DNA from: Patescibacteria group bacterium
GTDB taxonomy: Bacteria; Patescibacteriota; UBA1384; 2-12-FULL-50-11
NCBI GenBank assembly: GCA_038058635.1
Contig: JBBUAP010000002.1
Span: 20,948-84,947 of the forward strand
DNA length: 64,000 nucleotides
Direction: 5' to 3'
Shown: piece by piece, positions 3,797 to 63,963 of the stretch
Numbering within the stretch: the first letter of the stretch is position 1
Layout: the number at the start of each line of letters is the position of its first letter
The notes under the pieces: generated by a model
What the model was told of the DNA's origin: nothing
Seen by the model: only the letters and a program-made list of their open reading frames with translations
Databases searched by the model: none
Position numbers and translations under genes: made by a program

Positions 3797-3885
3797 ACGG
3801 CAGAATCAAGATTTAAGAATCTAGATTTAAGAGCAAGAATCCGAGCGCCCCTTCTTGAATCTTAAATAATAAATCTCTATTCTTC
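3797..3885. repeat. AT-rich imperfect palindrome of AGATTTAAGA / TCTTAAAT words between the rpfB-like gene and rsmA
   Basis: gaatcaagatttaagaatctagatttaagagcaagaatc...cttcttgaatcttaaataataaatctctattcttc. Confidence 0.45.
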
Positions 3886-8324: not shown

Positions 8325-9106
8325 TGCGCGCTATCGACACCCACGCCCATCTAGATTTTCCGCAGTTTGACGAGGATCGAGCTGCCCTGATTTCCCAACT
8401 GGCCGAGGAAGAAATCGGGGTGATTAATATCGCTACTGATTTTGAATCTAATCAAAAGGTCATTGACTTAGCCAGTACCAACAGCTTAATTTGGGCGACG
8501 GTTGGCATTCATCCAACAGAAATCAACTCTACTACTCTGGCTGGTCTAGCCGATCAATTAGAATCGCTAAAAGCCCTGGCTGAATCTAGCCCAAAAGTGG
8601 TTGCCATTGGTGAGGTTGGGCTGGATTACTACCGAAAAGAATCGGCTAGTCAGGCCGAGACCCAAAAAGCGGTTCTGCGTCAGTTTCTAACACTCGCCAG
8701 CGAAATAAATTTACCGGTAGTTTTTCACTGTCGTGAAGCTTACGGCGATTTACTAACGATGTTGGCGGATTACCCGGGCACAAGAGGGGTGATGCACTGC
8801 TTCACCGGTACAGTCAAAGAAGCCAAAAGTTTCTTGGATCTGGGAATGTATGTCTCGTTCACGGCCACGGTTACCTACCCGGCAAACGATACCCAACGCG
8901 AAACAATCGCCAGCGTGCCACTAGAAAAAATGTTCCTAGAAACTGACTGTCCTTTCTTGGTTACTCAAGCGCGTCGGGGAACTCGCAACGACCCCCGAAC
9001 CATCTTTGAAGTCGCCCAAACAATCGCCGCGGTTAAGAAAATAAGTGAGGAAGAGGTTTTGAAACAAACAACGCAAAATGCGATAGCATTTTTCGGTTTA
9101 AAATGA
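8324..9106 (+). CDS. tatD: TatD-family metal-dependent hydrolase/DNase
   Basis: IDTHAHLD at the N-terminus, EVGLDYY, HCF/HCR motifs. Confidence 0.85.
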   Translation: MRAIDTHAHLDFPQFDEDRAALISQLAEEEIGVINIATDFESNQKVIDLASTNSLIWATVGIHPTEINSTTLAGLADQLESLKALAESSPKVVAIGEVGLDYYRKESASQAETQKAVLRQFLTLASEINLPVVFHCREAYGDLLTMLADYPGTRGVMHCFTGTVKEAKSFLDLGMYVSFTATVTYPANDTQRETIASVPLEKMFLETDCPFLVTQARRGTRNDPRTIFEVAQTIAAVKKISEEEVLKQTTQNAIAFFGLK

Positions 9107-9110
9107 CAAT

Positions 9111-9150
9111 TCCTTACTTCAGACTTCAGCCTTTAGACTTTAGACTTCTG
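9111..9150. repeat. solo 3'-arm of the AGACTT-word element
   Basis: cttacttcagacttcagcctttagactttagacttctg, between tatD and the CvpA-CAP gene. Confidence 0.5.
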
Positions 9151-9164: not shown

Positions 9165-10139
9165 ATGAACTGGGTTGACCTTCTTATTCTCGGAGCGTTT
9201 CTGTTCTACTTCTTCGAAGGTATTCGTCGAGGATTTATTGAGCAATCACTGGAACTGATCGGGTTTTTCATCACCATTTTTCTAGCTCTGCTTGGCTATC
9301 ACTACTTTGGGGCCGTAGTGATGGAAAAAACCGGCATTCAAAAACAAGCGGCCGACCCGATTGCTTTTATTATTCTTTGGTTCATTTACCAAGTTATATA
9401 CTCGCTGATATTACGCTACAGCTACCCCAACATTCCGGCCCGGATCCGCAATACCTTGCCCAATAAGCTAGCGGGATTGATTCCAGCGTTTCTGAAAGGG
9501 ATGGTTATCCTTTCGGTGATACTGACCGTGGTTATCTCCGTACCAGTACCTCCGAAGCTGAAATCGGAAATCAGCAACTCATGGCTCGGCAGTCGATTCA
9601 TCAACAATTCGGCCACGGTCGAGCAGTATATTAATACCATTGTCGGTGGCGATTTAAAGGAGTCGTTAACATTCTTGACGGTTCCGGCTCAAACCGAACA
9701 GATTATCGACCCGAGCGAAAAAGTCGATCTAAAATTTACTACCACCGAAACAACAGTTGATGCCACTTCCGAAAGTAAAATGTTCCAATGGGTTAATGAG
9801 GAGCGAGCCAAGGCCGGCGTCAAACCGTTAGTAGTCGATGCTGGGTTAACAGGAGTGGCTCGAGCGCACTCAAAGGATATGTTCAATCGCGGCTTTTTTG
9901 CCCACGAAAACCCCGATGGCCTCTCGCCATTTGATCGAATGGATAAGGGTGGTGTCAGTTTCCAAGTCGCCGGTGAGAACATTGCTTACGCCCCAACAGT
10001 TGAACTGGCCCATAACGGCCTGATGCGCTCGCCTGGGCACCGAAAAAATATCTTGAGTCCGGATTACGGCCGAGTTGGCTACGGCATCATCGACGCCGGC
10101 ATCTACGGCAAGATGTTTGCGCAAGAGTTTGCGGACTAG
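9165..10139 (+). CDS. CvpA-like membrane domain fused to a CAP/SCP (YkwD-like) extracellular domain
   Basis: N-terminal 4-TM region (CvpA-like) followed by a CAP domain (HSKDMFNRGFFAHENPDG...GENIAYA...GHRKNIL). Confidence 0.6.
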   Translation: MNWVDLLILGAFLFYFFEGIRRGFIEQSLELIGFFITIFLALLGYHYFGAVVMEKTGIQKQAADPIAFIILWFIYQVIYSLILRYSYPNIPARIRNTLPNKLAGLIPAFLKGMVILSVILTVVISVPVPPKLKSEISNSWLGSRFINNSATVEQYINTIVGGDLKESLTFLTVPAQTEQIIDPSEKVDLKFTTTETTVDATSESKMFQWVNEERAKAGVKPLVVDAGLTGVARAHSKDMFNRGFFAHENPDGLSPFDRMDKGGVSFQVAGENIAYAPTVELAHNGLMRSPGHRKNILSPDYGRVGYGIIDAGIYGKMFAQEFAD

Positions 10140-10272
10140 GTTTTAGTAAAAACCTTCTTACTTCGCGGCTTGCAGCCGCCTGGCTTCAGCGAGAACCAGG
10201 GGGCTAATTTGCGAAGCCGCCCCCTAAGTTCTCGCGCTCTTTACCCCCGCACGCTACCCTTTGGGGAGAGGT

Positions 10273-10325
10273 GAAAAACCGCTCGCTGACCTGCTTTTGA
10301 TGGGTCATGGCTCGCGGTTTTTCGG
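10273..10325. repeat. 53-nt conserved hairpin element (copy A), shaped like a bidirectional terminator
   Basis: gAAAAACCGC-tcgctgacctgcttttgatgggtcatggctc-GCGGTTTTTc. A 10-bp outer stem and an inner TGACC/GGTCA stem. Lies between convergent genes. Confidence 0.6.
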
Positions 10326-10410
10326 TTAGTTAGGATAAAAGAAGGGCCGGGCGAGACTTGCGTTCCGTCCGGCCTGATGAACCAAGATAGTGTTCTTGAA
10401 TTGAGACCCC

Positions 10411-10758
10411 CTAGGAATATTTCTCGGCTTGGGCAATAGCCGACTCGCACCATTCGCGCTCTCCATCAGAGAGCTCTATGAGCGATTCTTCGCCGAGATC
10501 CCAGTAACCTACCCAGTTTCGACTGCGTTCAGTGGCGCCTTCTGGCCCGACTCCGCCGATTTCGCAAGTAAAAAACTGGAGTTTTCCATCCCTCCGTCTC
10601 AGGCAGAGTAGGTTCGTGTCGAGCGCTAGTGTGACCCCCGGCCTGAACCCTAAACTTTTCTCCGCCTTGTCGAGAACTCTCTCGAACAATACATTGACAT
10701 GCTCCCGAATCTCATCAGCTTCCAATAACGGTGCTGGTATTAAGGGACGAGTTTCCAT
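10411..10758 (-). CDS. hypothetical protein
   Basis: 115-aa ORF with a strong SD (GGAGGTGATGG immediately before the ATG) in an unusually GC-rich segment. No recognisable motif. Confidence 0.45.
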   Translation of the reverse strand: METRPLIPAPLLEADEIREHVNVLFERVLDKAEKSLGFRPGVTLALDTNLLCLRRRDGKLQFFTCEIGGVGPEGATERSRNWVGYWDLGEESLIELSDGEREWCESAIAQAEKYS

Positions 10759-10845
10759 CCATCACCTCCATGACGACTTGCCGCAACTATAGGGGTTTAC
10801 CGTCTTACTGACAATCCCCAAATCTTCAGATACAATTGACATCAA

Positions 10846-12144
10846 ATGTCACGGGTGGCGATGTTAATGAGTGGGGGAGTAGATTCTTCGGTTTCGGCCG
10901 CGCTTTTAAAGGAGCAGGGCTACGAAGTGATTGGCTTCTACATTTTAGGGTGGCTTGGCACACCGGAATTTCCGTGTCCGTGGCAGAAAGAGGAGAAGGA
11001 TGCCCGGGCCGTCGCCGATTTGCTTGGTATTCCATTTCACACCATCAATCTGTCGAAAGTTTACGAGCGTGAAGTAATTGACAGGTTCTTTGCCGGCTAT
11101 CAGGCCGGGGTAACACCTAATCCGGATATTTTATGTAATCGAGAGATTAAATTCAAAGCTCTCTGGCAGGCGGTCCGGCAGTTTGAGTGCGATTTCTTGG
11201 CAAGCGGGCATTACGCCCGTTGCCAACAAGTTCCAAGTCTCAAGGCTAAAGTCTCATTTGTCGCTGGCGCTCGCTTTTCACCGCCTCCGCCAGTTGGCGG
11301 AAGGCGATCGGTTCAAAGTAAGGCTCAAGTATCAAGTATTAAATCAAATGACAACCATCCACACTTCAGACTTCAGACTTCAGACTTAGAGCCTTCTTAT
11401 CCAGCTATTTTCAAGCCCGCGGATAAGGAAAAGGACCAGACCTATTTTCTCTGGGGGATTGAGAAGGCGATGTTGCCGAAAATCATTTTCCCTCTCGGCG
11501 AGCTGACCAAGCCGGAAGTTCGCCAACTTGCTAAGAAATATAAGCTCCCGACTGCTACCAAGAAGGATAGTCAGGGGATCTGTTTTGTCGGGCCACTGAA
11601 AGTTCGGCAGTTTCTCGCTTCCAGAGTCAAAACCAAACCTGGCGATGTCTACTTAACTGACGGGCGGAAAGTGGCGACTCACGAGGGCGTTGAACTCTAC
11701 ACCATCGGCCAGCGATTAGCCGCCGGTTCGGTCGACTGGACAGGCGATGTCCCGCCGCTGTTCGTGATCGCTAAAGACATTACCAATAATCGTTTGATTG
11801 TCGGCGCCGATTCCCAAACATTCGGCATCAAATTAACGGCGGGCTCGTTGATTTGGCTGTGCGACTCACCCTTCGATTCCGCTCAGGGTGGCTTTCACCA
11901 CGAAATTGTGGCGAAAGCCAAAATCCGGTATCGTCAAGAAGATGAAGCCGTTCACATCCGCCAAGTTAACGCCAAATTATCAGTTGAATTTGTCAGGCCT
12001 GTCCGCGCCCTTACGGCCGGTCAATCAATCGTTTTCTACTCAACTGAAGGACAATTACTCGGCGGCGGAATTATCGAACTAGTACCAGAGCAAGATGAGA
12101 CAGTTCAACAACTTACCAAGGCTCTCGACCAAACCAAAATTTAG
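10846..12144 (+). CDS. mnmA: tRNA-specific 2-thiouridylase MnmA, carrying a roughly 55-aa in-frame insertion
   Basis: PP-loop SGGVDSS, CNREIKF, GHYAR, DQTYFLW and the C-terminal beta-barrel. The segment between GHYAR and DQTYFL is about 50 aa longer than in canonical MnmA and is encoded by a repeat element (see repeat at 11232). Confidence 0.88.
   Translation: MSRVAMLMSGGVDSSVSAALLKEQGYEVIGFYILGWLGTPEFPCPWQKEEKDARAVADLLGIPFHTINLSKVYEREVIDRFFAGYQAGVTPNPDILCNREIKFKALWQAVRQFECDFLASGHYARCQQVPSLKAKVSFVAGARFSPPPPVGGRRSVQSKAQVSSIKSNDNHPHFRLQTSDLEPSYPAIFKPADKEKDQTYFLWGIEKAMLPKIIFPLGELTKPEVRQLAKKYKLPTATKKDSQGICFVGPLKVRQFLASRVKTKPGDVYLTDGRKVATHEGVELYTIGQRLAAGSVDWTGDVPPLFVIAKDITNNRLIVGADSQTFGIKLTAGSLIWLCDSPFDSAQGGFHHEIVAKAKIRYRQEDEAVHIRQVNAKLSVEFVRPVRALTAGQSIVFYSTEGQLLGGGIIELVPEQDETVQQLTKALDQTKI
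11232..11395. repeat. AGACTT-word palindromic element (MITE/RPE-like), copy inserted in-frame in mnmA, inverted relative to the intergenic copies
   Basis: ccaagtctcaaggctaaagtctca...gcgctcgcttttcac...ggttcaaagtaag...cacttcagacttcagacttcagactt matches the reverse complement of 13285..13427 arm-for-arm and core-for-core, plus an extra 28-nt GC hairpin. Confidence 0.7.
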
Positions 12145-13273
12145 ATATCTTCGCCAGCTTCTTTTAACCTTAGTGCTGGTGCTAGTCCTCGGAGCCGGCT
12201 ATGTTCTGGGCACGACCGCCACCAATGCTCGCCAGCAACTGGATTTAAATCAATTCTGGCAAGTATACGACATCATTAATCGACGCTTTGTCGGTTCATT
12301 GGATCAGTCCAAGGCCTCCGAGGGCGCGGCAATTGGGTTGGTTCAAAGTCTCGGCGATCCTTACAGTATGTATTTACCCGCCCAGGCCAGGAAAGACTTA
12401 GACGCAGAACTTAAGGGCGAATTTGAGGGCATCGGCGCCGAATTAACCCAAAAGGACGGCCTAATTACGGTTGTGGCACCACTCGATAGCTCACCAGCGG
12501 CCAAGGCCGGATTGATGCCTCAAGATATAGTATTGAAGATCGGCGACGAATCGACCGAAGGCATGACGATCGATGTAGCAGTCAGTAAGATTCGTGGCCC
12601 CAAAGGCACAACCGTCACTCTGGAGGTGGCTCGCCTCAAAGTTAACGAGCCGCTGAAGCTGGCGATTACTCGCGAGGCCATTCATATTGACAGCGTGGAG
12701 TACAAGATGCTCGAAGGCAATATCGGCTACCTAGAAATTCGCCAATTCGGTGATGACACAGTCGATTTAGTCCAAAAGGCGGTGGCCGAGTTAGCCAAGA
12801 GCCAGCCCAAAGCCGTTATTATTGATTTACGCAACAACCCCGGCGGTTATTTGGACGATGTTGCCCCGATTGCCGGCCAGTTTATCGCTCCTAATGTCGT
12901 CGTTAAAGAACGATACAAAGACGGCCGAACTGATTTGCTCCGTTCAACCGAAGTGCCGGTTCTGCCCAACACCCCGCTCTACATTTTGGTTAACGGCGGC
13001 TCGGCTTCAGCGGCCGAGATATTGGCTGGCGCCCTGCAGGATTACAAACGAGCAACCTTGGTCGGACAAAAGACCTTCGGCAAGGGCTCGGTTCAAGATA
13101 TTATCCCACTCAAAGCTGGTGCCGCCTTGCGGCTGACAATTGCTGAATGGCTGACGCCCAACGATCGTCAAATCAGCAAGAAAGGCATCGATCCCGATGT
13201 CGTCGTTGAGGGGAACAAGTCGTCCGACAGCGATCCGGTGTTGGCGAAAGCGCTCGAGCTGGCAGGCAAGTAA
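12095..13273 (+). CDS. ctpA: C-terminal processing (tail-specific) peptidase, family S41, with PDZ domain
   Basis: GFEGIGAEL, PDZ segment, IDLRNNPGG, GGSASAAEIL, and the catalytic Ser/Lys context. N-terminal TM. Confidence 0.85.
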   Translation: MRQFNNLPRLSTKPKFRYLRQLLLTLVLVLVLGAGYVLGTTATNARQQLDLNQFWQVYDIINRRFVGSLDQSKASEGAAIGLVQSLGDPYSMYLPAQARKDLDAELKGEFEGIGAELTQKDGLITVVAPLDSSPAAKAGLMPQDIVLKIGDESTEGMTIDVAVSKIRGPKGTTVTLEVARLKVNEPLKLAITREAIHIDSVEYKMLEGNIGYLEIRQFGDDTVDLVQKAVAELAKSQPKAVIIDLRNNPGGYLDDVAPIAGQFIAPNVVVKERYKDGRTDLLRSTEVPVLPNTPLYILVNGGSASAAEILAGALQDYKRATLVGQKTFGKGSVQDIIPLKAGAALRLTIAEWLTPNDRQISKKGIDPDVVVEGNKSSDSDPVLAKALELAGK

Positions 13274-13284
13274 CCAGCAGTGAT

Positions 13285-13427
13285 CAAGTCTGAAGGCTAA
13301 AGTCTAAAGTAAGTCTTAATTATCAAGTTTCAAGTAAATAACACTTGATACTTGTACTTACTTTGAACGAAGTGAAAAGCGAGCGCTAGAGACAAATCAG
13401 ACTTCAGACCTGAAGCTTTAGACTTGT
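13285..13427. repeat. AGACTT-word palindromic element, intergenic copy 1 (12 nt after the ctpA stop)
   Basis: 5' arm caagtctgaaggctaaagtctaaag. Conserved core tacttactttgaacgaagtgaaaagcgagcgctagagac. 3' arm cagacttcagacctgaagctttagacttg. The arms are imperfect inverted repeats. Confidence 0.7.
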
Positions 13428-13477
13428 CGGTAAAATGATGGGTTGCTTATTGCGGTCATATTACCGATGATAAACGT

Positions 13478-19794: not shown

Positions 19795-19905
19795 AAATCC
19801 CAAATCCCAAATCCCAAATCCCAAACAAAAAACAAACTCCAAATCTCCAAATATTTGGATAATTTGAATTTCGGTAATTGGGATTTGTTTGGTGCTTGGG
19901 ATTTT
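19795..19905. repeat. long imperfect palindrome built from AAATCCC / GGGATTT words
   Basis: (aaatccc)x4...caaactccaaatctccaaat | atttggataatttgaatttcggtaattgggatttgtttggtgcttgggattttggtgattggagttt. Roughly a 50-bp imperfect stem inside the gat operon, just upstream of gatB. Confidence 0.6.
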
Positions 19906-19910
19906 GGTGA

Positions 19911-21272
19911 TTGGAGTTTCCGATGAGTCAATACAAATTGACCATCGGCTTGGAGGTTCATGTTGAACTAAAAACTAAAACAAAAATGTTTTGTGGTTGT
20001 GCCAACGATCCTTTTGACTCAAAACCCAATGTTAACGTTTGTCCGGTCTGTTACGGCCTACCTGGGTCATTGCCACTATTAAACAAGGAAGCGATTAGGC
20101 TGACAGTTGAATTGGGCCAAGCTTTAAACGGCCAGATTGCCCCGGCTACTTTTTGGGCGCGAAAGAATTATTTTTACCCCGATCTGCCGAAGGGCTATCA
20201 GATTTCTCAATCTACTGCGCCAATCGTCGAGCATGCCAGTATTGAAATCGATGGTGTCAAACATAATATTCAACGGATTCATCTGGAAGAAGATGCAGGC
20301 AAGTCGGTTCACCAAGCCGACCAATTGGCTTCACTGGTGAATTTTAATCGTGCCGGGGTGCCACTCATGGAGATGGTGACCGAACCAGATTTCCATACGG
20401 CCGAAGACGCCAAACGCTTTTGCCAGGAAATTCAACGAATTGTTCGTGCGCTCAATATTTCTGACGCAGATATGGAAAAAGGCCAGATGCGCTGTGAGGC
20501 CAATATATCAGTGTCAAAAACAGAAAAACTTGGCGAAAAAGTTGAGGTCAAAAATATTAATTCCTTTCGAGCTGTTGAGAAAGCCATTACTCACGAGTAC
20601 GAGCGACAAACGGAATTGTTAGACAAAGGAGGGTCTGTTACACACGAGACTCGTACCTGGGACAGTATTGCTAGCAAAACAGTATCTATGCGCTCCAAGG
20701 AGACCAGCGCCGACTACCGTTACTTTCCTGAGCCAGACTTGCCGATCGTAGAGATAGAGGTTGGGGCGGTAAAAAGTGCGCAGCTTCCGGAAGATCGACG
20801 TCGAGCACTGGAGGCGATTGGTACTCCAGCGGCGATCGCTCAATCTTTGGTAGATAAACAACTCGACAGTAGAGTACTGGTAATCAACAACCGAGAGCCC
20901 GAGTTAACTAAAGAAGCGGCTCATTTGATGTTAGAGTCGACGGCCTTCGCTAGTTTGGATCTTGAAGATCAGACCAAGCTCTTAAGCGCCAAGAAGTCGG
21001 GCGGTTGGACAAAAGATACCCTCGCCGTCGCGATGAAAGAGATCGGTATCGGCAAGACAGCCGAAGAGGTAATCGCTACCTACTCCGAGAAGTTTGTACT
21101 GGAACCGATTATTGTTGAGGCGATCACGGCCAACCAACCAGCTGTCAATGACTACACCGCAGGCAAAGAGAACGCTCTCCACTTCTTGGTGGGTCAGGTG
21201 ATGGCCAGAACTAAGGGTAAGGCCAATATTAACGAAGTTCGAACTCAATTGAAGGATATTCTCGACCGGTAG
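19911..21272 (+). CDS. gatB: Asp-tRNA(Asn)/Glu-tRNA(Gln) amidotransferase subunit B
   Basis: KLTIGLEVHVEL, CPVCYGLPGSLP, and a GatB/YqeY C-terminal domain. Confidence 0.9.
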   Translation: MEFPMSQYKLTIGLEVHVELKTKTKMFCGCANDPFDSKPNVNVCPVCYGLPGSLPLLNKEAIRLTVELGQALNGQIAPATFWARKNYFYPDLPKGYQISQSTAPIVEHASIEIDGVKHNIQRIHLEEDAGKSVHQADQLASLVNFNRAGVPLMEMVTEPDFHTAEDAKRFCQEIQRIVRALNISDADMEKGQMRCEANISVSKTEKLGEKVEVKNINSFRAVEKAITHEYERQTELLDKGGSVTHETRTWDSIASKTVSMRSKETSADYRYFPEPDLPIVEIEVGAVKSAQLPEDRRRALEAIGTPAAIAQSLVDKQLDSRVLVINNREPELTKEAAHLMLESTAFASLDLEDQTKLLSAKKSGGWTKDTLAVAMKEIGIGKTAEEVIATYSEKFVLEPIIVEAITANQPAVNDYTAGKENALHFLVGQVMARTKGKANINEVRTQLKDILDR

Positions 21273-25707: not shown

Positions 25708-25710
25708 TGC

Positions 25711-25800
25711 AAAACTCAAAGCTCAAAGCTCAAAACTACAACTCAAAACCAACTAGTTTTAAGTTAGTAGCTAAAATTTTGACTTTTGACTTTTGCGTTT
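25711..25800. repeat. imperfect palindromic word repeat (CTCAAAG / TTGACTTTT words)
   Basis: gcaaaactcaaagctcaaagctcaaaac...ctagttttaag...aaattttgacttttgacttttgcg. The arms are approximately reverse-complementary. Lies between rpmE and rpsB. Confidence 0.5.
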
Positions 25801-25831
25801 TAACTTATCTTCAAACCGGAGGTTTTTACTA

Positions 25832-28505: not shown

Positions 28506-29596
28506 TGATCATTACCCTCCTCGTTTTTCTCGCCGTACTTGGCTTTATGGTATTTGTTCACGAGTTAGGGCATTTTCTAGTCGCCAAAAAGAGCGGGGTT
28601 ATGGTCGAAGAATTCGCCTTCGGCTTTCGACCAAAACTTTGGAGTAAAAAGATTGGCGAGACAACTTACGCCATCAATCTAATTCCGTTAGGTGGCTATG
28701 TAAAGATGTTTGGGGAAGCTGACGGTAAAACCGGTCCCAGGTCGTTTAAGTCTCAAAAACCGTTTTCGCGCTTAGCAATTCTTGTGGCTGGAGCAACAAT
28801 GAATCTGCTGATGGCCTGGATTATTTTTACAATTTTGTTTATCACGGGCTTTCAGCCTTTTGCCCCTAACGCGGCAAGAAACCCGTTCATTTCCGAGCGA
28901 CCGACTCCCACTATTGCCAAAATTGTCGAGGATAGCCCAGCCGAAATTAGCGGATTCCAACTCAATGATCAAATATTAGCCGTCAACGGCCAACAACTAG
29001 ATGGCGGAGCAGGTTTCGTTGAGGAAATACGCGCTCTGAATGGCCAAAGCGCCACCGTCACAATCAGACGCGGCGAGGATACGTTAGATTTAACGGTCAC
29101 GCCGAGGGTAAATCCACCAACCGGCCAAGGAGCGATTGGAGTGGCTATCGGCCAAACCGGAGAGGTCAGATCTCTTTGGTACAAGGCGCCGGTTGCCGCC
29201 CTTTACGAAACAGGAAGGATAATTGGAATCTCGGCAGTTGGATTTGTGGATTTTATAAAGAATTTTGTGATTAAGCAGGAAGTGTCCGAAGATGTCACAG
29301 GAATCGTCGGCGTCGGAGCGCTGACCGGTGTGGCTAGACGAATGGGTTTTGAATACCTGGCTCAATTAGTCGCGTTAATATCAATCGGCTTGGGCGTAGT
29401 TAACTTGATGCCAATTCTGCCGCTTGATGGTGGCCACATAGCGGTCTTGGCCTACGAGAGAGTCACTCGACGACCACTCACCGAGCGACAGTTCTCCATT
29501 TTTGCAACGGCTGGATTAGCTTTCATCTTGCTAATGTTCGTTGTCGTCACCCTTAAGGACTTTATACGCTTCGATGTCTTCGGGAGGTTGTTCTGA
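28505..29596 (+). CDS. rseP: RseP/Eep-like site-2 protease (M50) with PDZ domain
   Basis: HELGHFLVAKK (HExxH) in TM1, a PDZ region, and C-terminal TMs with an LDGGH motif. Confidence 0.85.
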   Translation: MIITLLVFLAVLGFMVFVHELGHFLVAKKSGVMVEEFAFGFRPKLWSKKIGETTYAINLIPLGGYVKMFGEADGKTGPRSFKSQKPFSRLAILVAGATMNLLMAWIIFTILFITGFQPFAPNAARNPFISERPTPTIAKIVEDSPAEISGFQLNDQILAVNGQQLDGGAGFVEEIRALNGQSATVTIRRGEDTLDLTVTPRVNPPTGQGAIGVAIGQTGEVRSLWYKAPVAALYETGRIIGISAVGFVDFIKNFVIKQEVSEDVTGIVGVGALTGVARRMGFEYLAQLVALISIGLGVVNLMPILPLDGGHIAVLAYERVTRRPLTERQFSIFATAGLAFILLMFVVVTLKDFIRFDVFGRLF

Positions 29597-30819
29597 TGAG
29601 GTTGAGCAATTTCTACACCAAAACCCGTCGCTCGATGGCGGCGCAAGATTCAAAAAACGCCTACTTGCTCGAGAAAGCCGGCTATATTAGCCAGGTCGCG
29701 GCTGGGGTCTACGCTTTCTTACCGCTTGCGGTGCGCTCACTCCAAAAGATCGAAACTATCGTTCGAGAAGAAATGAACGCTCTTGGTGGCTCGGAAGTTA
29801 TATTTTCCGCTCTCCAACCGAAATCCACCTGGGAAAAATCCGGGCGCTGGGAAGATAAAAACTTCCGCCAGATTGTTTATCTAGACCCAGAAGCCGATAT
29901 GACTTTTGGGGCGACGCACGAGGAGCCGATGACCATTGCCCTTAAACAAAGCGTCCAGTCGTACCGCGATCTGCCAGTTATTCTTTTTCAGTTTCAAACT
30001 AAGTTTCGCAAGGAATTGCGGGCCAAATCCGGCCTGCTACGAGGGAGAGAGTTTCGAATGAAAGACCTATATAGCTTTCACCCAGACGAAGAATCTCATC
30101 ACAAATTTTATGAAGACGCCGCCAAGACCTACTTAAAAGTATTCGAGCGACTAGGACTCGATGCTTATCGGGTCAAAGCCAGTGGCGGTGTATTTACCGA
30201 TGAATTTTCTGACGAGTTCCAGGTAATCTGTGAAACTGGCGAGGACGAGATACTGGTTAACCACAAAACAAAGACTGGTTTCAACAAAGAAGTTGAGGAT
30301 AAGTTGAAAGAAACGGACAAGAAGAAACTGGAGCGAGTGAAGGCCATCGAAGTAGGGAATATTTTTCCTCTTGGAACCAAGTATTCTGACGCTTTTGACC
30401 TAAAATACCTCGATGCCTCCGGCGATCGACAATCGGTTTGGATGGGTTCGTACGGCATCGGCATTAGCCGGTTACTTGGGACGCTGGCGGAACTTTTCAA
30501 CGACGAGCACGGCCTAAAACTACCGAGTCAAGTCGCGCCGTTTGAAGCAGTTGTTATCAATCTTACCAGCTCTAAAACAGGCGAGAAGATTTACAGCGAT
30601 CTTACGGAGCAGGGTGTGGAAGTGTTACTCGATGACCGAGACGAGATGGCCGGAACAAAATTGGTTGATGCCGACTTAATCGGCTACCCAATCAGGTTGG
30701 TTTACAGCGCCAAAACGGCGCAGGATGGCAAAATCGAGATTAAAGAGCGCGGCTCTGGCAAAGTGACGCTGGTTAATTTGGAAGATGTTGTCGGGCGGGT
30801 GCAGAAACTACTGTCGTAG
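29596..30819 (+). CDS. proS: prolyl-tRNA synthetase (class II, short form)
   Basis: Class II motifs. N-terminus MRLSNFYTKTRRS...YLLEKAGYISQVAAGVYAFLPLAVRSL is typical of ProRS. C-terminal anticodon-binding domain. Confidence 0.85.
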   Translation: MRLSNFYTKTRRSMAAQDSKNAYLLEKAGYISQVAAGVYAFLPLAVRSLQKIETIVREEMNALGGSEVIFSALQPKSTWEKSGRWEDKNFRQIVYLDPEADMTFGATHEEPMTIALKQSVQSYRDLPVILFQFQTKFRKELRAKSGLLRGREFRMKDLYSFHPDEESHHKFYEDAAKTYLKVFERLGLDAYRVKASGGVFTDEFSDEFQVICETGEDEILVNHKTKTGFNKEVEDKLKETDKKKLERVKAIEVGNIFPLGTKYSDAFDLKYLDASGDRQSVWMGSYGIGISRLLGTLAELFNDEHGLKLPSQVAPFEAVVINLTSSKTGEKIYSDLTEQGVEVLLDDRDEMAGTKLVDADLIGYPIRLVYSAKTAQDGKIEIKERGSGKVTLVNLEDVVGRVQKLLS

Positions 30820-30832
30820 GCTAAAAAATCTT

Positions 30833-30990
30833 AAGTCTAAAGGCTCAAGTCTAACTTAAGTTCCAAGTAATAATTTCCAAGTAATGAGCCCCAAATACTT
30901 AATACTTAAAACTTGTTACTTACTTTGAACGGAGTGATAAGCGAGCACTAGCGACAAATTAGACCTTAGACTTGCCACTTTAGACTTGAC
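30833..30990. repeat. AGACTT-word palindromic element, intergenic copy 2 (about 12 nt after the proS stop)
   Basis: Arms taagtctaaaggctcaagtctaac / agaccttagacttgccactttagacttgac. Core ttacttactttgaacggagtgataagcgagcactagcgac is about 90% identical to the copy-1 core. Confidence 0.7.
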
Positions 30991-31084
30991 AGTACCCCCA
31001 ACCTGTTGTTACTCTGTAAAAAGGTAAGCGCCCGATCAGGGCATCCCCGCAAATTCGCGGGGGTTAAATGTTAAGGAGGTTCAT

Positions 31085-38874: not shown

Positions 38875-41800
38875 TCAGAATGTCCCGGTCAATATATATA
38901 GTACCTCTGTTGTATACGGATTGGCTTCTTGAAGTTCGCTAACCGAGACTTTGTGGGTGATGGTGAACGCTTCGTTGGTGACAGGACCGCTGGTGCCGTC
39001 AACGGCGGTGGTGTGATCGGCGATGATATCGCCAAAGGCCGTCAGACTTAACGGTGCGTAGAGCGTGCCGGTGCTAAACTTGTTGACACCCTGAATGGTG
39101 GTGTCGTCCGAGGTGTAGCCGTAGCCACAGTTGGTGCTAGGCGTACAAGTACCACCTGGCCAGGCGCCGGGTGAGGCGTAGGTGCCACCCTCAAACATCG
39201 GAATGGTTTTGACGCCTTTAGTCAGGAGGGAGCTAGCGTATTGGCGAATAACATAACCGCCGTAGGCGTTAGTGCTGGAGGTCAAGACCAAGGTCTTGGA
39301 GTCGCTCCGATTATTACCGTTATTGAGGTTGGCGAAGGTAATTGTAACCGCGCCGAGCGACAAGCTAATCGTTGGCAGAACCGACTGGCCGTTCGATGAA
39401 GTGACGCCCGAAGTATTGGTGGCGTTGTCGACCGCTCGAACATTGAAGAAGTAATTCTGGTTGGTTCGCAGAATCAAGCTACCCGATGTGACCGATTCGG
39501 TCGTCGAGTTATCGGTCCAGGCCTTGATATCGGTCCCACCGCTAGTCGTACCAATAGAGTATTGATACTTATTCAACCCGGAAACGGTGCAGGTGAAAGC
39601 ATCCCAGTTAGCCGAGACGGCAGTGAGCGACCCATCGTTATATGAAGCGTCAACATCTTCGACCGTGCCATCATAGATACTTGAGCCGTAAGTGCAGGCG
39701 GTCGTGTCAACGCCAAAGTCACGATTGGCCTCTGGATTGGCGCCAAACGAGATCCAACCAGAGTAGCCACCAAAGGTATCCTTAACTCTGGCTTGCCAGT
39801 GGTACTCGTTGGCATCAGTGATTCCGGCAATAGTAAGGACGACCGTTACTGGTGTGCCAGAGTAGGCGACACCCGAACCGCAGGAATCCTCGGTGTTGGC
39901 AAAAGCATCGGCGATCAGATCTTTCTCGACACACAAGTACAAAGTGTCGGGATTGTCGGTATCCGAGGCGGTGGCGGTGAACTTAACTGAAGTCTCGTTA
40001 GTCCAATCCCCAACGGCCAAAACCGTGTCGTCGGTCTTCTTTTGGGCCAGGGCAGAGGGATCATTCGGGTTGGTGTTAACTTGCCAGTGGAGGAAACCAA
40101 GACTATCGCTACCGCCGTCTCCGGTGTCGGAATCGGAGGCTTCACAATCGCTCCAGCCGGTACAGGTGGAAGGATACAAGGCCCAGTAGTTGCCAGCCGC
40201 TGGAGCGCCGGTGGCTGTTTGAGTAACGGAGTATTCTGGGACATTGTCAGAGGCCTCAAGGAAGGTCATATTGTCCCAAGTTTTGGCTGGAGCACCGGTG
40301 CCTATTAACGAGCCGTGGACTGTGATGTAGGTATCGGTTGCCCCGACATTCTGGAAGTTATCGAATTCGCCGTCATCAAGATTGGTCAGCGTCGCCCCAG
40401 ATTGAAGGTCGAGGCCGTTACCGCCGCTGGTACCGCCAAGGTAACTAAATTTGTAGTACTGGGCGTCGATTGTTCCGGCCACATCGAAGTGGTAGCCACC
40501 GGAGGCCCCACGAGTAACAGTGGAGAGATTAGTTGAAGTGGTTTGGCCTTTCAGCTCGAGTGTTTTGCCCGAGCCAACGGTGAAGATGTCGCCATCCTGC
40601 ATCATCGTCATTGGCTTAATGGTCGAGGTAGAGTTGTCGGCGTCAAAGGCAGCGAAGGTGTAAGTGGCGTTTAGAGCGTAGGGAGTGGCACCACAGTCAA
40701 CGGTGAACTTGGTATTAACGGCACCAGTCGAATCAGTGAACAATGTCCCGGTCGTTAGATCACCAACATCGGTACCGTTCCGGTAAACATCCATTACCGC
40801 TTGGCTAGTGACACAGCTGGCTCCGACACCGGCGGTTTTGGTGACAAGCATGTAAGCATACGGACCGGCCGACAAGTCAGCCGGAGCCGACAGGTCGTAA
40901 GCAAGGTTCGTGTCTTCGGTGCCAGTCCCAGAATACCCGTGCGCCGTAACCGATTTTTCCCACAAATTGTTGGCGTAGTTGAATTTGTCAGTACTCTCCA
41001 CTTGTGGCGTTTCGGCTGTATCGGCCGGAATGGCATACTCGCCCCAGAGCTTGGTTGCGCCAGCCGAGGTGTCGTGCTTGCGAGAAACAATATATGCCCC
41101 AGCAACAGTTACCCCAGTCACTTCAGTAGAAGAAGAGAGAGTGGTGTTGTAGAGAGAAAGGGTGTGAGCGTTAGTTCCGGCAAAAATAATGTCCGCCGTA
41201 GTATTGGCAGTTGCGCCATAGACATCATTAATGATGACATTGCCGGTTGAGGCAGTATTGTCGCTAACATATAAACCATACGACTGACCGCCGCTCTGAT
41301 TTCCGATTAATGTGTTGTTGTTAGAGATACTAAGACGAAAGCCCCAGCTGCCGTTACCCGTGGAAGTATTGGAACTTAATATATTATTACTGGAGCTGAC
41401 ATTCAGGAGAAAACCAGATGAAATATTGCCGGTGGCAGAGTTGCTCATTAGGATATTGTTGGTGGAAGTAGTGATAATAAACCCATATAGACTGTTGCCA
41501 ATAGCGGTATTAGATGTCAGGGAGTTATTTGAGCTAGAGTCGATAAGGAAACCGTAGTTAACATTGCCGGTGGAGGTATTAGATGTCAGGGTGTTATTGT
41601 TGGCGCTGGAGTCGATACGGAAACCGTAGGAGGCGTTGCCAGTGGCGGAATTGGAAGTCAGGGTGTTATTGGCGCTGGCGTTGAGATAAAAGCCAGCAGT
41701 AGTATTACCTATAGCCGTATTGCTCGTCAGGGTATTGCTATTGGAGCTGACCTGAAGGTAGAAGCCGTAGCTGGTATTACCCGAAGCGATATTGTTAGAC

Positions 41801-44800
41801 AAGGTATTGCTGTTGGCACTGCCGTTGAGATTAAATCCATAGAGAGTGTTACCAGCTGCCGAGCTGTTAGTGATACCCTTAGCGTTAGCGGTGTTGTTGT
41901 TGAGGGAGGCGGACAGTCGAGCGCCACGGTGGCCACTTCGTAAGCGCGATCGGTCAATGGTCACACCCTCGCTGGCGTTGGCGCCGTTGACAGAGTCGAA
42001 TGTTACCCCAAATTTTAAGCTAGCATTGCGGCCTAGATCACAGACATCGGCGTAATTCATAACTGTTTCCGAACCAGCGTTGGCATGAATATAACTTTCG
42101 CCAGCCTCATCATTCGTTGCGGTACAGGCAACGCCGTCTTCGGCGGTGACATTGGCGTAGTCATAAATTTCAAAATTATCTCCAGGTCTAACTCCGTCAG
42201 AGATATCTACCGTATCTCCGGAAGTGAAACCGGAGAAAACATCGGGGGACTCAACGACTTTCAGAAGATCGTTGGTACCGGTACAAGAGGCATCGTCATT
42301 AGCCGAGTCAACAATTTGGAAGTAGCCCTTGGTACCGGTGAAGTCACGCATATACGAGCCAATTTTTTGATTATCAGCGGTGATCGAGTCGGGAATACAG
42401 ACACTCATTATGCCGTTGTTGTTGGAGAGAGTCTTACTAGCACTAACGACACTAGCGGTTGAGGTATCGGCGCGGGTGATGGAGTCGTGGGTGCCGGTAT
42501 CGCACTGGGCATCGTCAGTGGTGGTGGCGGTAATCGCGTAGATCTGACCGATGGCTAGACCGCTCGTTGTTCGAACATGTTTGCTAGTGTAGCCAACTGA
42601 GAAATCTGCATTAGCACAGATTTTTGTTTCGCGGTTGTCGTAGTCGGTAATGGCAGTGGAAGAAGTGGCAGCTAGTGAGAGGGCACCGGTGACATTAAGT
42701 TTGCCAGTTGAGGCGACTTCAACACCGGTGTCAGATGCGGTGGCACTCGATTTAGGAATTAGTTTCAAGATTCCGTTTTCGTTTATCGTTAAGGTGCCTT
42801 GGCCTGATCCTGATGAGGCCCCAACATCAACAATGCAGTTAGCGCATTGAGTAGAAGTATCTTTGTTGACTTGGAGGGTAATCGTACTGCCTTCAGCCAG
42901 TGCGTCCATCGTTTGCAAAATTGCAGTTTGGTCAGCGGTTGTGGCGATGTCAATCCCGCCATAAACCAACAAGTTGTCGGCGTCGCCGTTTCCGACAGTA
43001 ACCGTACCGTTACTAACTACCAATGTATCCGCTGCCGGAGTACCGGCTGAAGTATCCACCAACATCGGATCCTGGATCGTCCATGCTCCAGCAACCCCGT
43101 TAAAGATGACTTTGAAGAAGGCCGAAGTACCGTTTAGAGTTCCGGAGAGAGTGTTACCGGAGTCAGTGGCGTTGAAAGTGACAGTGCCAGAACGAGCGGT
43201 GAAGGTGCCGATGTTACTGTAGTTCCCGCCGATCGTTAGCCCCCAGTTGGAACCGGAGACAGTGTCTAATGTTGCCGGCACATCAATGGTGAGATCGTTC
43301 GTCACGGTCGTATTTCCCTCAAGATCGTAGGTCTCGATACAAAAAATATTCAAGCAGCCAGTATTTAAATTATAGTAAGTCGCAACTTGAACCGTTGTAT
43401 TACCTCCAGCGTTATTACCCCAGAAGCTGAAAGTAGAGGTGGCGGGAGTTAAGACTGCGGCCGGCGAAGCTAGCAGTTGGAACGGATCGCCGGCAGTACC
43501 ACTTAAAATCCAGGTGCGGTTACCGGCATTGAGAGTTGTTGTCGCTCCAGCGGCATCACCAGAGGCGCCGACCAAAAGGATTGAGGATACTGTGATTCCA
43601 CCAGAACCTCCAGTCTGGGTAGTTACGGTGAACGGACTAGAGGCGTGAGAATTCGAGAAAGTGAGACTGACGAAAGTCCAGGCATTAGAGCCACTAGTGG
43701 TGCCAAAATTTTTACTCGCCCCCACCCGTTGAGTAAAGAGACTCGAACCGCTCATTGTAATCGCCCCAACTCCCGTGGCACTGCCGTTGACGGTCACATC
43801 AACCCCGCCGCTCATCGTCCCACCGGCATTAGACAAATCGTTGGCAACTTGCAGTGCTGTCGTGCTGAGAGATAAGATACTGGCCCCAGAGTGAGTGAGA
43901 TTATAGAACTGCTTAGTACTACCAGTACCGCCAGTAATGACCGTTTGAGTACCACTAGTGCCGGCAAAATCAACCGTACTGGTGTCGGCGTTGAATACAG
44001 CGGCATTAGAGTTGGTCCAATTGCCCTTAACCGTTAAATTGGCGGCGCCCATAGTCAGAATAGCAGTGGTAGTAGTGAAGTCGATATTACCATTGACGGT
44101 GACAGTTTGACCGTTGAGGTTGGTAATATTCGCAAGACTACAGCAGCCACCAAGTGACATATTGCCAGTGAAAGTCGTAGTGCCCTGGAATATAATACTG
44201 TAGGTACTTGGTAATTGATTGACGAATCCGGAGTTATAGGTATAGGCAGGAAAATTGGTGTTAGCGGATCCCCCAAAGATGTAGATTTGCCCGTTGCCGG
44301 TTCCCCAAGTTCCCGAAAGAGAAAGGGGGTTTGTCGGAGGGGACTGTAAATAGAATGTTTTAGAGTTCAAATCGAAAGTACCAGCCCCTAATGTCAAAAC
44401 ATTATCTATACCGAACGATTGTAGCATCTGAGTGGTCTTGCCACCGGCTTGGCCGACATTGAGGTTGTAAAAACGAGGTTCATACGTATTTGTCACCCCG
44501 GTCGTTATTGTTTTAGTGCCAGCTCCGTCCATTATTACTGTCGATGTTCCTTCAACGATACTTAAGCTATCTGTCGCCACCGCCGAGGTATCCCAGTTGC
44601 CGGAAACGGTAATCGTTGAGGCCCTTTCGGTCAGTGACCAAGTACCGGCGTTACCAGTCAGGTTTCCACCAATAGTTAGCGCATAGTTAAAGGTGGTATT
44701 TGTATCGAAAGTGCCGTTAGTAATATCAAAGTTATTAGTAACGCTCATTGCGTCTTGCAATGTCCAACCCCCACCAACCCCATTAAACACAAGGTTGTAA

Positions 44801-54545: not shown

Positions 54546-54578
54546 CCAATCTTCAAAGGCCTGGCCTTTGAAGATTGG
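54546..54578. repeat. REP-like perfect palindrome (type a), 24 nt upstream of the RAYT-1 start and 5 nt after the PEBP stop
   Basis: ccaatcttcaaaggcc-t-ggcctttgaagattgg, a 16-bp stem. Confidence 0.85.
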
Positions 54579-55317: not shown

Positions 55318-55360
55318 AAGTACCACACCATAAAGGCCAGGCCTTTATGGTGTGGTACTT
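55318..55360. repeat. REP-like perfect palindrome (type b), overlapping the stop codon of RAYT-like gene 2
   Basis: aagtaccacaccataaaggcc-a-ggcctttatggtgtggtactt, a roughly 21-bp stem. Same AAAGGCC-N-GGCCTTT core as type a. Confidence 0.85.
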
Positions 55361-56028: not shown

Positions 56029-56045
56029 ATTAAATGGTACACCAT

Positions 56046-56088
56046 ACCACCACACCATAAAGGCCAGGCCTTTATGGTGTGGTGGTAG
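56046..56088. repeat. REP-like perfect palindrome (type b), upstream of RAYT-like gene 2
   Basis: taccaccacaccataaaggcc-a-ggcctttatggtgtggtggta, a 21-bp stem. Confidence 0.85.
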
Positions 56089-59560: not shown

Positions 59561-59881
59561 TACTAAGTTCTAAGTCCTTTCCGACCACGGGGCCGAAACG
59601 GAATTACAATTAGCTTATTAACAATTGACACAACCGTCAGTTGAGTGTTTTCTGCCCCCGCAGAATCATTCAAGCATTTGGCGGTTGCAAGAATGCCAGT
59701 TTACGAGAATGGTTATTCTTCGCTTCATGCGAAGAAGATGCACCAAGGGCGTAAGCCCCTGGAGCATTATTTAACTCGTACCCCTGCGCAAAGCGCAGAG
59801 CTGCTAGCCACTGGCTGGTGGCTTCTAGCTGAGTACAGGGTGCACGGAAGCTTTATGCTTCTATATATGAGAGTTTGATCA

Positions 59882-59913
<32 letters not shown>

Positions 59914-60210
59914 AACATGCAAGTCGAATGGGTTAGACCCATGGCGAACGGGTGAGTAATGCACAAGAACTTGCTCCGAAGTTGGGGATATCCCCTCGAA
60001 AGAGGGAGTAACACCCAATGGTCTCAGCCCCAGTTTAAGGAAGAGACTACCAATAATTTGGTTAGTCGTTGCTTTAAACTGGAGCTGAGTAAAAATTTAT
60101 TGCTTCGGAAGAGGCTTGTGTCCTATCAGCTAGTTGGTGAGGTAATGGCTTACCAAGGCGATGACGGGTAGTTGGTCTGAGAGGATGACCAGCCACAGTG
60201 GAACTGAGAT

Positions 60211-60951: not shown

Positions 60952-61019
60952 ACGGTCCACACTCCTACGGGAGGCAGCAGTTGGGAATCGTCGGCAATGC
61001 CCGAAAGGGTGACCGCGCG

Positions 61020-61057
<38 letters not shown>

Positions 61058-61114
61058 TCTTTTATGAGGGATGATTATGACAGTACCTCAAGAATAAGGG
61101 GCTGCTAACTACGT

Positions 61115-62078: not shown

Positions 62079-62095
62079 GCCAGCAGCAGCGGTAA
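61481..62095 (+). CDS. LAGLIDADG homing endonuclease (double-motif), intron 2. The ORF runs into the downstream exon.
   Basis: ILIGVTLGDGYL and LAIWYQDDGTL motifs. The stop TAA lies inside the exon sequence GGTAATAC. The track ORF starts at 61424. Confidence 0.75.
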   Translation: MTERVKEILIGVTLGDGYLTSFSGKSQKSSLDMKVAEDKYQYLNWLRHELAELGGSGLTKRSDNNQFRLVTQRNLEIGRIRTLFYPNGKKCIPSNIDQLLISPLTLAIWYQDDGTLDYRDKYHYNALFATHRFSHSGCELLTSALQKNFGLDVRVCRCQMRGKVNYRLYVVSKSMDRFLGLIRPYIHPCFQYKIRDLKASQQQR

Positions 62096-62351
62096 TACGT
62101 AGGCCCCGAGCGTTATCCGGAATTATTGGGCGTAAAGTGCGCGTAGGTGTTTTTGTAAGTCGGTCGTTAAATCTCACAGCTCAACTGCGAGACCGCGAGC
62201 GATACTACAAGAATTGAGTTTTGCAGGGGCTAGCAGAATTTCTGGAGTAGGGGTGAAATCCGTTGATACCAGAAGGAATACCAATGGCGAAGGCAGCTAG
62301 CTGGGCAATAACTGACACTGAGAGCGCGAAAGCGTGGGGAGCAAACGGGAT

Positions 62352-63918: not shown

Positions 63919-63963
<45 letters not shown>

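Follow-up and report, generated by a model that had tools for sequence, protein, structure and literature searches.

The window analyzed here is a stretch of 64,000 nt from contig JBBUAP010000002.1 (assembly GCA_038058635.1) of a Patescibacteria group bacterium, and it carries several members of a family of palindromic elements, 146-198 nt in length, beside or within the genes ctpA, proS and mnmA. Genomes of the candidate phyla radiation (CPR), or Patescibacteria, are small, streamlined and usually considered poor in mobile DNA. A sequence-only reading of the window had described the family from two copies, at 13285-13427 and 30833-30990, and both were found exactly where it placed them. The family is real and fairly unusual, and its most interesting aspects are the copy within mnmA, a separable conserved core, and a background of heptamer repeats that extends across the clade. 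The members in the window and the gene that hosts one of them are the following, with positions counted from the first letter of the window.

13283-13430, plus strand: full copy wA, 12 nt past the ctpA stop codon
13286-13310, plus strand: outer 5' arm of wA, AAGTCTG AAGGCTA AAGTCTA
about 13311-13354, plus strand: inner hairpin of wA
13355-13397, plus strand: core of wA
13398-13427, plus strand: outer 3' arm of wA
30830-30992, plus strand: full copy wB, 13 nt past the proS stop codon, with its core at 30917-30959
11229-11395, minus strand: full copy wC, inverted within the mnmA open reading frame (ORF), with its core at 11254-11325
11282-11307, minus strand: GC-rich hairpin nested in wC, TCGCCTTCCGCCAACTGGCGGAGGCG on the element's own strand
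10846-12144, plus strand: mnmA, host gene of wC, encoding a protein of 432 residues
9116-9148, plus strand: solo 3'-type arm, ACTTCAG ACTTCAG CCTTTAG ACTTTAG AC, between tatD and cvpA

The product of ctpA is an S41 C-terminal processing peptidase, that of proS matches TIGR00409 at 383 bits (cut-off 307), and that of mnmA matches NF001138 at 359 bits (cut-off 284). The ctpA stop codon is the TAA at 13271-13273 and the proS stop codon is the TAG at 30817-30819. The first AAGTCT word follows them at 12 and 13 nt, respectively, which bears out the proposed position beside stop codons. The prolyl-tRNA synthetase (ProRS) encoded by proS (29596-30819) has just 407 amino acids (aa) and passes TIGR00409 in two separate stretches, a split implying the absence of the bacterial insertion (editing) domain.

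Copies, anatomy and distribution of the family

Both pattern matching and alignment support the family. The 39-nt core pattern put forward from the letters has two exact matches in the window (13355-13393 and 30917-30955) against none in 100 shuffles, and words of the AAGTCTAAAG type occur 17 times where 5.0 +/- 2.1 are expected. The similarity is not confined to the core, as wA and wB align end to end, core and arms together, at 81% identity; the inner hairpin of wB is 14 nt longer than that of wA. A profile made from the copies gives full-length matches in the window at 30830-30994 (+), 13282-13432 (+) and 11223-11391 (-), with E-values of 1e-39 to 1e-51, and a partial match at 9100-9148. 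The last of these corresponds to the solo 3' arm predicted near 9111-9150, which is indeed present. All seven copies that were folded, three from the window and four from other genomes, are more stable than their dinucleotide shuffles (z from -2.2 to -5.8), with energies of -40 to -63 kcal/mol. By profile search and folding, this is a real dispersed family with hairpin-forming arms built from a common word and with a conserved core. The sequence-only reading needs correction in mnmA, where its "rearranged copy" is in fact complete; it runs in the opposite orientation, and its core holds a nested GC hairpin of 26 nt.

The census comprises 10 distinct full copies, three members without a core and one solo arm. 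All 10 full copies bear the core. Three of them lie in the window and seven elsewhere, in related groundwater CPR genomes only; these seven come from Hainich aquifer contigs and metagenome-assembled genomes (MAGs) and from one MAG labeled Berkelbacteria. The loci used for comparison (L numbers below) are syntenic regions of relatives, reached through homologs of MnmA. Copies sit at non-homologous loci in at least three genomes, and a sister genome holds at least five core-bearing copies together with at least two that lack the core. The high genomic copy number proposed from the letters goes beyond these counts.

The MnmA protein of the window is found in a Hainich groundwater metagenome (well H43, 0.1-µm fraction) under the NCBI label "Patescibacteria group bacterium". 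Across 185,579 species, each represented by one genome, the strict core pattern has four matches only, three in a "Candidatus Saccharibacteria" MAG and one in a "Candidatus Berkelbacteria"-labeled MAG. A looser core pattern returned 18 loci from a metagenome collection, with real elements in Hainich contigs alone; the 12 matches outside those contigs are chance matches without arms, and the contig of the window itself is not among the loci returned. The family is specific to one clade of groundwater CPR/Patescibacteria genomes labeled Saccharibacteria-like. Searches of viral contigs, phage records and plasmids for the element gave no matches, leaving a phage, plasmid or viral origin unsupported. 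A literature search on palindromic repeats or transposable elements of the miniature inverted-repeat type (MITEs) in Saccharibacteria and CPR turned up no paper describing such a family.

Read on the strand where the core runs forward, the 10 full copies share a single order of modules. The outer 5' arm comes first, with three to five heptamers of the form AAGTCTN or AAGGCTN. The inner 5' arm follows with AAGTNNN heptamers and leads through a short loop to an inner 3' arm of NNNACTT heptamers. The core comes next, a segment of 38 nt with the sequence CTTACTTTGAACGRA-GTGAAAAGCGA-GCGCYAGC-GACAAAT, and after it the outer 3' arm, whose NAGACTT heptamers pair with the AAGTCTN units of the outer 5' arm. 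The last bases of the core, AAAT, pair with an ATTT of the 5' arm. Because the core lies between the inner and outer stems on the 3' side, it forms an asymmetric insert in a two-tier hairpin. The arms vary among copies in unit number and register. Mean pairwise identity is 91% over the 38 core columns (a figure inflated by ascertainment, as weighed below), 68% over the 5' half and 74% over the 3' arm. Folded alone, the plain core is unstructured (z = +0.54).

Some copies carry optional GC-rich hairpins of 13-30 nt, nested at two fixed points of the core. The first point lies between GAACGRA and GTGAAAAG, where L003, L004 and L017a have CCGCCAGCTGGCGG and wC has its 26-nt version. At the second point, a 30-nt hairpin clearly related to that of wC replaces GCGCYAGC in L017a. 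The nested hairpins fold significantly (z = -2.1 and -3.1). They were also considered as an independent dispersed repeat, an idea rejected on finding CCGCCANCTGGCGG solely inside elements in the DNA examined. Complementarity between the core and other sequence of the window, including the 16S rRNA gene, amounts to chance-level 10-11-mers only.

A core that is conserved in sequence and not in structure could serve a dedicated trans-acting protein as its site of recognition or cleavage. The protein might be of the HUH/Y1 type, akin to IS200 or to transposases associated with repetitive extragenic palindromic (REP) sequences (RAYTs), or another nuclease or recombinase, and would act on hairpins extruded as single strands. 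The heptamer hairpins would then be its substrates or products, in a system like that of RAYTs and their hairpin-forming REP doublets (REPINs), with a new architecture. The 91% identity of the core speaks for this explanation, as does its persistence in L027 despite different arms and a diverged host (detailed in the next section). In addition, GCGCYAGC fits the motif GCGNNAGC in six of the nine canonical copies that retain the segment and in two diverged cores, and in L017a a longer GC hairpin takes its place. GCGNNAGC is described as a very stable DNA mini-hairpin motif (PMC13037366), and the fit may be a weak hint of recognition on single-stranded DNA, although only six bases of the motif are specified. 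Hairpins with lineage-variable words and without target-site duplication also resemble REPIN behavior (PMC3116915). However, no candidate enzyme gene was seen near any copy, and the data do not separate DNA from RNA recognition. The Y1 transposase Pfam family appears in none of the called genes at the comparison loci, and two of the ORFs neighboring copies gave no Pfam match when scanned. Element ends and nested hairpins are also free of the GTAG/CGTC tag that marks REPs (PMC3733652). We consider this explanation improbable.

A separable core and the copy within mnmA

Comparison of orthologous sites separates the core from its scaffold. In the sister Hainich genome, ctpA is followed by a hairpin (L029:10393-10513) that is colinear with wA and made of the same words but lacks the core, with TTTTTT standing where wA has its segment of about 38 nt. 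At the same site, L026 keeps of the element a solo 3' arm only, its ctpA being followed by a canonical GC hairpin with a T-run, and L025 and L028 have nothing. A second core-less member lies at L024:871-968. Diverged cores, for their part, are found in the company of other words. The one at L027:696-735 lies amid TTTTCAG/CTGATAA words and, by eye, shares about 30 of 38 positions with the canonical core. Another lies amid CAGCAAT/AAAGCTG words within an ORF (L003:3906-3945), and a partial one amid TCAGTTT words (L029:14493-14509). These three are the extra matches of a relaxed sub-core pattern, for which chance was estimated to supply about 0.05 in the sequence searched. Given the core-less ortholog in L029 and the diverged cores in hairpins of other words, the core is, judged by these comparisons, a discrete, separable and presumably inserted module. 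Presence/absence polymorphism is seen for whole arms, for the core and for the nested hairpins; the solo arm at 9116-9148, for instance, is a clean 30-nt insertion relative to the orthologous tatD-cvpA junction in L026.

The ORF that contains the diverged core of L003 (L003:3856-4695) has no Pfam match. It opens with translated heptamer arrays and the core in reverse orientation (...HQQSAISNVAGARSSSGIQSQQSA...KAESRKLKAES...), and its periodic peptides QQSA and KAESRKL recur in the MnmA loop of the homologs P0005 and P0014.

The copy wC occupies a loop of MnmA. Alignment with solved MnmA structures covers residues 2-127 and 189-413 of the window protein and leaves about 52 residues between these blocks unmatched. 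wC adds about 57 residues to the loop, read as ...QVPSLKAKVSFVAGARFSPPPPVGGRRSVQSKAQVSSIKSNDNHPHFRLQTSDLEPS..., and the site is empty in the orthologs P0006, P0015 and P0016. Among 17 close homologs aligned, the segment from GHYA to IFKP ranges from 6 residues (P0006, P0016) up to 63 in the window protein. The nine intergenic copies are closed in 54 of 54 reading frames, with 1-9 stop codons in each. wC has no stop in the frame of mnmA, and conserved MnmA sequence continues on both sides of it. At this base composition, a run of 55 stop-free codons has a chance of about 2%. Its arms are composed of AAGTCTG and AAGTCTC units instead of the TAA-containing AAGTCTA AAG. As wC is stop-free in the mnmA frame and lies in a loop whose length varies among orthologs, it is most likely translated as part of MnmA and has apparently been purged of stop codons.

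The loop has hosted other arrays as well. In every lineage inspected its DNA is a heptamer array, with a different word in each, and the arrays translate into 7-residue periodic peptides such as KIENSKL and KAESRKL. At L027:3191-3358 and L028:8454-8627, the loop contains a different hairpin made of AATTTTC/GAAAATT heptamers around a common center of its own, ATGAATCAAKTTCCAAACA. In-frame heptamer hairpins are thus recurrent at this site.

Further observations concern mnmA and its surroundings. A second segment of MnmA also varies in length (alignment columns about 400-470, residues about 338-358 of the window protein). This segment, which carries the motif (E/S)PFDS(L)xLAQG, is present in duplicate in P0002 and is extended in both P0013 and P0029; it looks like the translation of another in-frame repeat insertion. 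The ORFs of mnmA and ctpA overlap by 50 nt (12095-12144), and the overlap is kept in relatives. Upstream, the slot between cvpA and mnmA (10139-10846 in the window) holds a different minus-strand gene in several relatives: the product has 115 aa in the window and is a 221-aa methyltransferase in L026, and its length is 302 aa (L027), 196 aa (L028) or 176 aa (L029) in the others. No gene is called there in L031 and L032. The intergenic DNA at 10130-10420 of the window is G+C-rich and strongly structured (-114 kcal/mol).

Heptamer hairpins across the clade

The arms of the element are one instance of a clade-wide class of tandem-heptamer hairpins, which the sequence-only reading overlooked, as it did the separability of the core and the in-frame, probably translated state of wC. 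In the window, 15 of 25 tandem-repeat rows have a period of 7 or 14, and across 11 clade loci the proportion is 61 of 108 (52 with period 7 and 9 with period 14). Exact period-7 runs number four in the window against none in shuffles, and periods 8-15 give no exact run. The genomes share a vocabulary of words that includes AAGTCTN, AAAACTC, AAAACTG, AAAATTG, AAGAATT and AAATCTT, among others. Further members of this class in the window, to which no strand is assigned, are listed below.

3802-3876: heptamer hairpin of another word, AGAATCN/AGATTTA, beginning 6 nt past a stop codon
7425-7456: degenerate heptamer array of TCTTAAG type, between a class I tRNA synthetase gene and eamA
19795-19918: heptamer hairpin, AAATCCC x4.4 paired with GGGATTT, beginning 3 nt past a stop codon
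24313-24406: heptamer hairpin of AGAATTA words, between two minus-strand genes
25710-25806: heptamer arrays forming a joint hairpin, CAAAACT x5.9 and TTTTGAC x4.3

Orthologous sites hold different words of the common vocabulary in different genomes, and these words do not derive from the local flanks. At the junction of the tRNA synthetase gene with eamA, an AAGTCT-type hairpin is found in L029, TTTTGAG x7 in L026 and GAAAATT-type words in L028. The tatD-cvpA junction has an AGAATTA hairpin in L029, CTGAAAA repeats in L028 and a core-bearing hairpin in L027.

Such turnover invites an explanation without any mobility, in which arrays arise and are replaced in place by replication slippage and the likeness of copies reflects convergent expansion of words. 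It would account for different words at the same sites, namely the mnmA loop and the two junctions above, for a solo arm that is a pure heptamer array, and for arms that differ in unit number and register. Slippage cannot, however, make the same non-repetitive 38-nt core and nested GC hairpin at 10 or more unrelated loci. The 81% end-to-end alignment of the two intergenic window copies and the module order shared by 10 copies also count against it, as does a vocabulary that is common to genomes and independent of flanking sequence. For the core-bearing family, we consider slippage largely refuted, and as a full account of the data it is extremely unlikely; as a route by which arms expand or contract, it is possible.

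Two other ideas about the words were discarded. A telomere-like identity for AAATCCC is ruled out, as no rotation of it gives the plant telomere repeat TTTAGGG. Periodic binding of the HutP/TRAP type, which involves NAG-N4 spacing, was entertained on the ground that most words have AG on either strand, and it was dropped because AG in most words is expected by chance.

Other features of the window stand apart from the family. A second, unrelated family of palindromes occurs at 54546-54578, 55318-55360 and 56045-56087, between or at the ends of minus-strand genes. Its members have perfect arms of 16-21 nt around a GGCC-N-GGCC center, with ...CCATAAAGGCC A GGCCTTTATGG... found twice and CCAATCTTCAAAGGCC T GGCCTTTGAAGATTGG once. 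A single ORF of 4647 aa spans 38875-52818 on the minus strand and contains an internal duplication of about 6.35 kb, with mirrored ORFs and with tandem repeats of 72 nt present both at 41495-41671 and at 47849-48025. The gene for 16S rRNA is interrupted (59871-64000): Rfam matches to the small-subunit rRNA model cover 59871-61155 and 63326-64000, and group I intron matches lie at 61105-61479 and 62392-63370. The introns contain ORFs of 223 aa (61424-62095) and 298 aa (62450-63346), which presumably encode homing endonucleases. Intron-interrupted 16S genes are typical of CPR bacteria. In one relative, a UvrD-like helicase (L031:1-1721) contains an intein, by its match to PF14890.

Interpretation and known systems

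Three suggestions had been made for the element from the letters: a small structured RNA, a terminator module, or a MITE. Under the first, the element would be a non-coding RNA (ncRNA), either a small RNA or a cis-regulator, in which the core forms junction strands held by variable helices P1 and P2 and by optional P3 and P4. It does look RNA-like that single-stranded segments are conserved while the hairpins, set at fixed points, are optional or variable. Moreover, the core-forward strand is about 3-13 kcal/mol more stable than its complement in five of seven copies, and a small core hairpin (UUACUUU-GAAC-GAAGUGA) uses G-U pairs available on that strand only. In the arms, however, G-U pairs (11) set against A-C mismatches (7) give no strand asymmetry. 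Covariation is also absent. RNAalifold finds 32 pairs with an unfavorable covariation term of +0.88. On that structure, 93.4% of alignment cells pair against 92.2% when partners are shuffled, with 30 of 500 shuffles doing as well, and covariation scores 0.092 against 0.079 (68 of 500). An alignment-free test agrees: 5' arms pair with their own 3' arms at a mean of -27.1 kcal/mol and with the 3' arms of other copies at -30.3 kcal/mol. Since own arms pair no better than foreign ones, the pairing stems from the common word and not from compensated change.

The remaining evidence points the same way. The core is unstructured, and members without it exist. Relative to the gene whose stop codon adjoins, six copies have the same and three the opposite orientation, and wC lies antisense in a coding sequence, so that no orientation bias is apparent. 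Rfam searches, run over the whole window at gathering scores and around the copies by E-value, returned sub-threshold chance matches only, such as mir-971, and no promoter consensus was found in the elements. The proposal of a structured RNA is therefore not upheld, and we rate it as very unlikely. A ribozyme was rejected as well: hammerhead and twister cores are absent by eye, and four to six copies lack the would-be stem II. A coding role for the core was likewise set aside, as the length of the nested insert, 13 nt, is not divisible by 3 and the intergenic copies have no open frame.

The position of the copies raises the alternative of a host-beneficial 3'-end module, in which the hairpin, transcribed with the upstream mRNA, pauses or stops RNA polymerase or blocks 3'-5' exonucleases, and dispersal is secondary to selection for that function. 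REP sequences, which stabilize upstream mRNA in Escherichia coli, provide a model for it. All nine intergenic copies adjoin a stop codon, at least about 50 nt before the next start codon where that is known. Most begin 0-20 nt past the stop, the furthest being L017a at about 45 nt, and other heptamer hairpins of the window likewise begin 3-6 nt past stop codons. The hairpins are also stable (-40 to -63 kcal/mol, z from -2.2 to -5.8). The hairpin after ctpA is kept in the window genome and in L029, and L026 has its canonical GC hairpin and T-run there, as though the structures were interchangeable. In a compact genome with co-directional genes, however, nearly any tolerated intergenic insertion falls after a stop codon.

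The notion of a classical terminator does not hold for the window copies. No G+C-rich stem with a T-run occurs in or at the end of wA, wB or wC, no T-run follows any of them, and a terminator scan was negative in them. Their stems are AT-rich, and the flanks beyond the 3' arm read GTCGGTAAAA and GACAGTACCC. At L009b and wB, separate small hairpins lie alongside, and termination at these sites may not be the work of the element. A 3'-end module also leaves unexplained the conserved unstructured core, the in-frame copy in mnmA and the copies in opposite orientation, though a palindrome works either way. We therefore view a primary role for the host as unlikely. The elements may still act in the host as hairpins in 3' untranslated regions (3'-UTRs).

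The MITE comparison comes nearest of the three suggestions. Size, non-coding character, dispersal and inverted ends agree with it, whereas target-site duplication and a partner transposase do not appear. Overall, we favor, as a somewhat better than even prospect, a non-coding selfish palindromic DNA repeat family that is closest to Rickettsia palindromic elements (RPEs), MITEs and REPINs and has an unusual heptad-plus-core build. With copies just past stop codons and one in frame in mnmA, the family resembles selfish palindromic DNA in its behavior, more than a structured RNA or a classical terminator.

Under this selfish-DNA interpretation, scaffold and core would have spread at the DNA level. 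Heptamer hairpins offer microhomology and could adopt slipped or cruciform forms. A core could be copied from one such hairpin to another through recombination, gene conversion or template switching, and a candidate enzyme recognizing the core might drive the spread in addition or instead. Palindromic arms would permit insertion in either orientation, which would account for the lack of target-site duplication. Copies would survive only in harmless places, either shortly after a stop codon or within a permissive protein loop and in frame. The intergenic ones probably form part of transcripts as hairpins of the 3'-UTR, with any effect on transcript ends a likely by-product.

Several points weigh against the selfish-DNA interpretation. 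No consistent direct repeat that could represent a target-site duplication flanks the 13 members examined, and their termini are not sharply defined. No transposase or parent insertion sequence (IS) was seen in about 390 kb of clade DNA, and the 13 small ORFs adjoining copies share no mutual similarity, so that no repeated candidate transposase emerges. The copies are few and closely related, which is a weak point. Most copies outside the window were found through the core pattern, which inflates the apparent conservation of the core by ascertainment bias; the contrast between core and arms also holds in the three window copies, which were found independently, and in L009b and L017a, found by proximity. 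Two or three diverged genomes retain the hairpin after ctpA, possibly a sign that it is useful to the host. Exchange between hairpins alone does not explain cores that sit in hairpins of other words. Finally, the core is kept across genomes whose MnmA proteins are only about 68-76% identical, more than junk DNA predicts. These last two observations suggest either a trans-acting factor that recognizes the core or recent exchange between co-resident genomes; the cross-genome conservation fits a functional recognition site, with recent transfer as the alternative.

A broader proposal, which we put forward as speculative and rather unlikely, is that the clade harbors a new repeat system, with heptamer hairpins, drawn from the common vocabulary, actively generated or re-seeded at gene 3' ends and in the MnmA loop, and with the core and its embedded mini-hairpin site acting as the recognition element of a hairpin-targeting enzyme or RNA. 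If true, the element would belong to a new class of mobile or templated DNA and be no decayed IS derivative, and the system would be a regular source of 7-residue-periodic insertions in proteins. The family itself presents a layered palindromic repeat spreading in streamlined CPR genomes. wC would be a case of selfish DNA absorbed into a conserved enzyme as a translated loop, parallel to RPEs. The clade-wide excess of heptamer arrays has an origin as unexplained as that of the short tandemly repeated repetitive (STRR) and TAACTGA repeats. In practice, CPR MAGs with these elements will suffer from broken assemblies, overlong protein predictions and spurious ORFs, and the elements could serve as strain markers in aquifer time series.

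Among known systems, the small dispersed repeats of Nostoc (Elhai et al. 2008) are reportedly very small hairpin-type modules, of 21-27 nt, that occur nested in other repeats and in settings of conserved structure. Such nesting recalls the 38-nt core and the GC hairpins of 13-30 nt described here, though sequences, sizes and hosts differ and the resemblance serves as a lead only. The cyanobacterial STRR and the Beggiatoaceae TAACTGA repeats are intergenic 7-nt arrays with few copies each and with an unexplained origin, and they occasionally occur in ORFs (PMC4679880). The present arrays are likewise mostly intergenic and tandem with a unit of 7 nt, the dominant period in this clade. They differ from both in their words (AAGTCTN, AAAACTC, AAAATTG, AAGAATT), in the embedded conserved core and in the phylum of the host. 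TAACTGA arrays are moreover direct repeats, mostly just upstream of start codons, whereas the arrays described here are hairpin-paired and lie just after stop codons.

REPINs are hairpin-forming doublets that usually lack target-site duplication, reside in genomes for long times and have lineage-specific variants (PMC3116915). The hairpin form, the missing target-site duplication and the lineage-variable words are points in common. The arms here, however, are heptamer arrays and not two REPs of 20-40 nt, the GTAG/CGTC tag is missing, no RAYT gene was seen, and copy number appears low. With bacterial MITEs such as Correia, ERIC and QMITE, the family shares small size, AT-richness, non-coding character, inverted-repeat ends, a stem-loop form and dispersal to mostly intergenic sites. 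It differs in having no target-site duplication and no related IS or transposase among the sequences searched. In a transposase-driven MITE, the ends are expected to be more conserved than the interior. The "terminal inverted repeats" here are low-complexity heptamer arrays whose length varies, and at 68-74% identity they are less conserved than the interior, at 91%. MITEs can insert into one another, and their target-site duplications decay with age (PMC10969869).

RPEs sit in frame in housekeeping genes and are translated as an extra surface segment (PMC10969869). They bear no sequence relationship to the present family, whose tandem-heptamer arms, separable core and nested hairpins set it apart, and their host is an alphaproteobacterium and not a CPR bacterium. 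Nine of the 10 copies here are intergenic with stops in all six frames, and there is no element ORF for a conserved peptide. The likeness lies in the palindromic form, a repeat length of about 150 bp and dispersal in a small genome, and in the in-frame, stop-free placement of one copy in MnmA, with a diverged core also within an ORF of a relative (L003:3856-4695).

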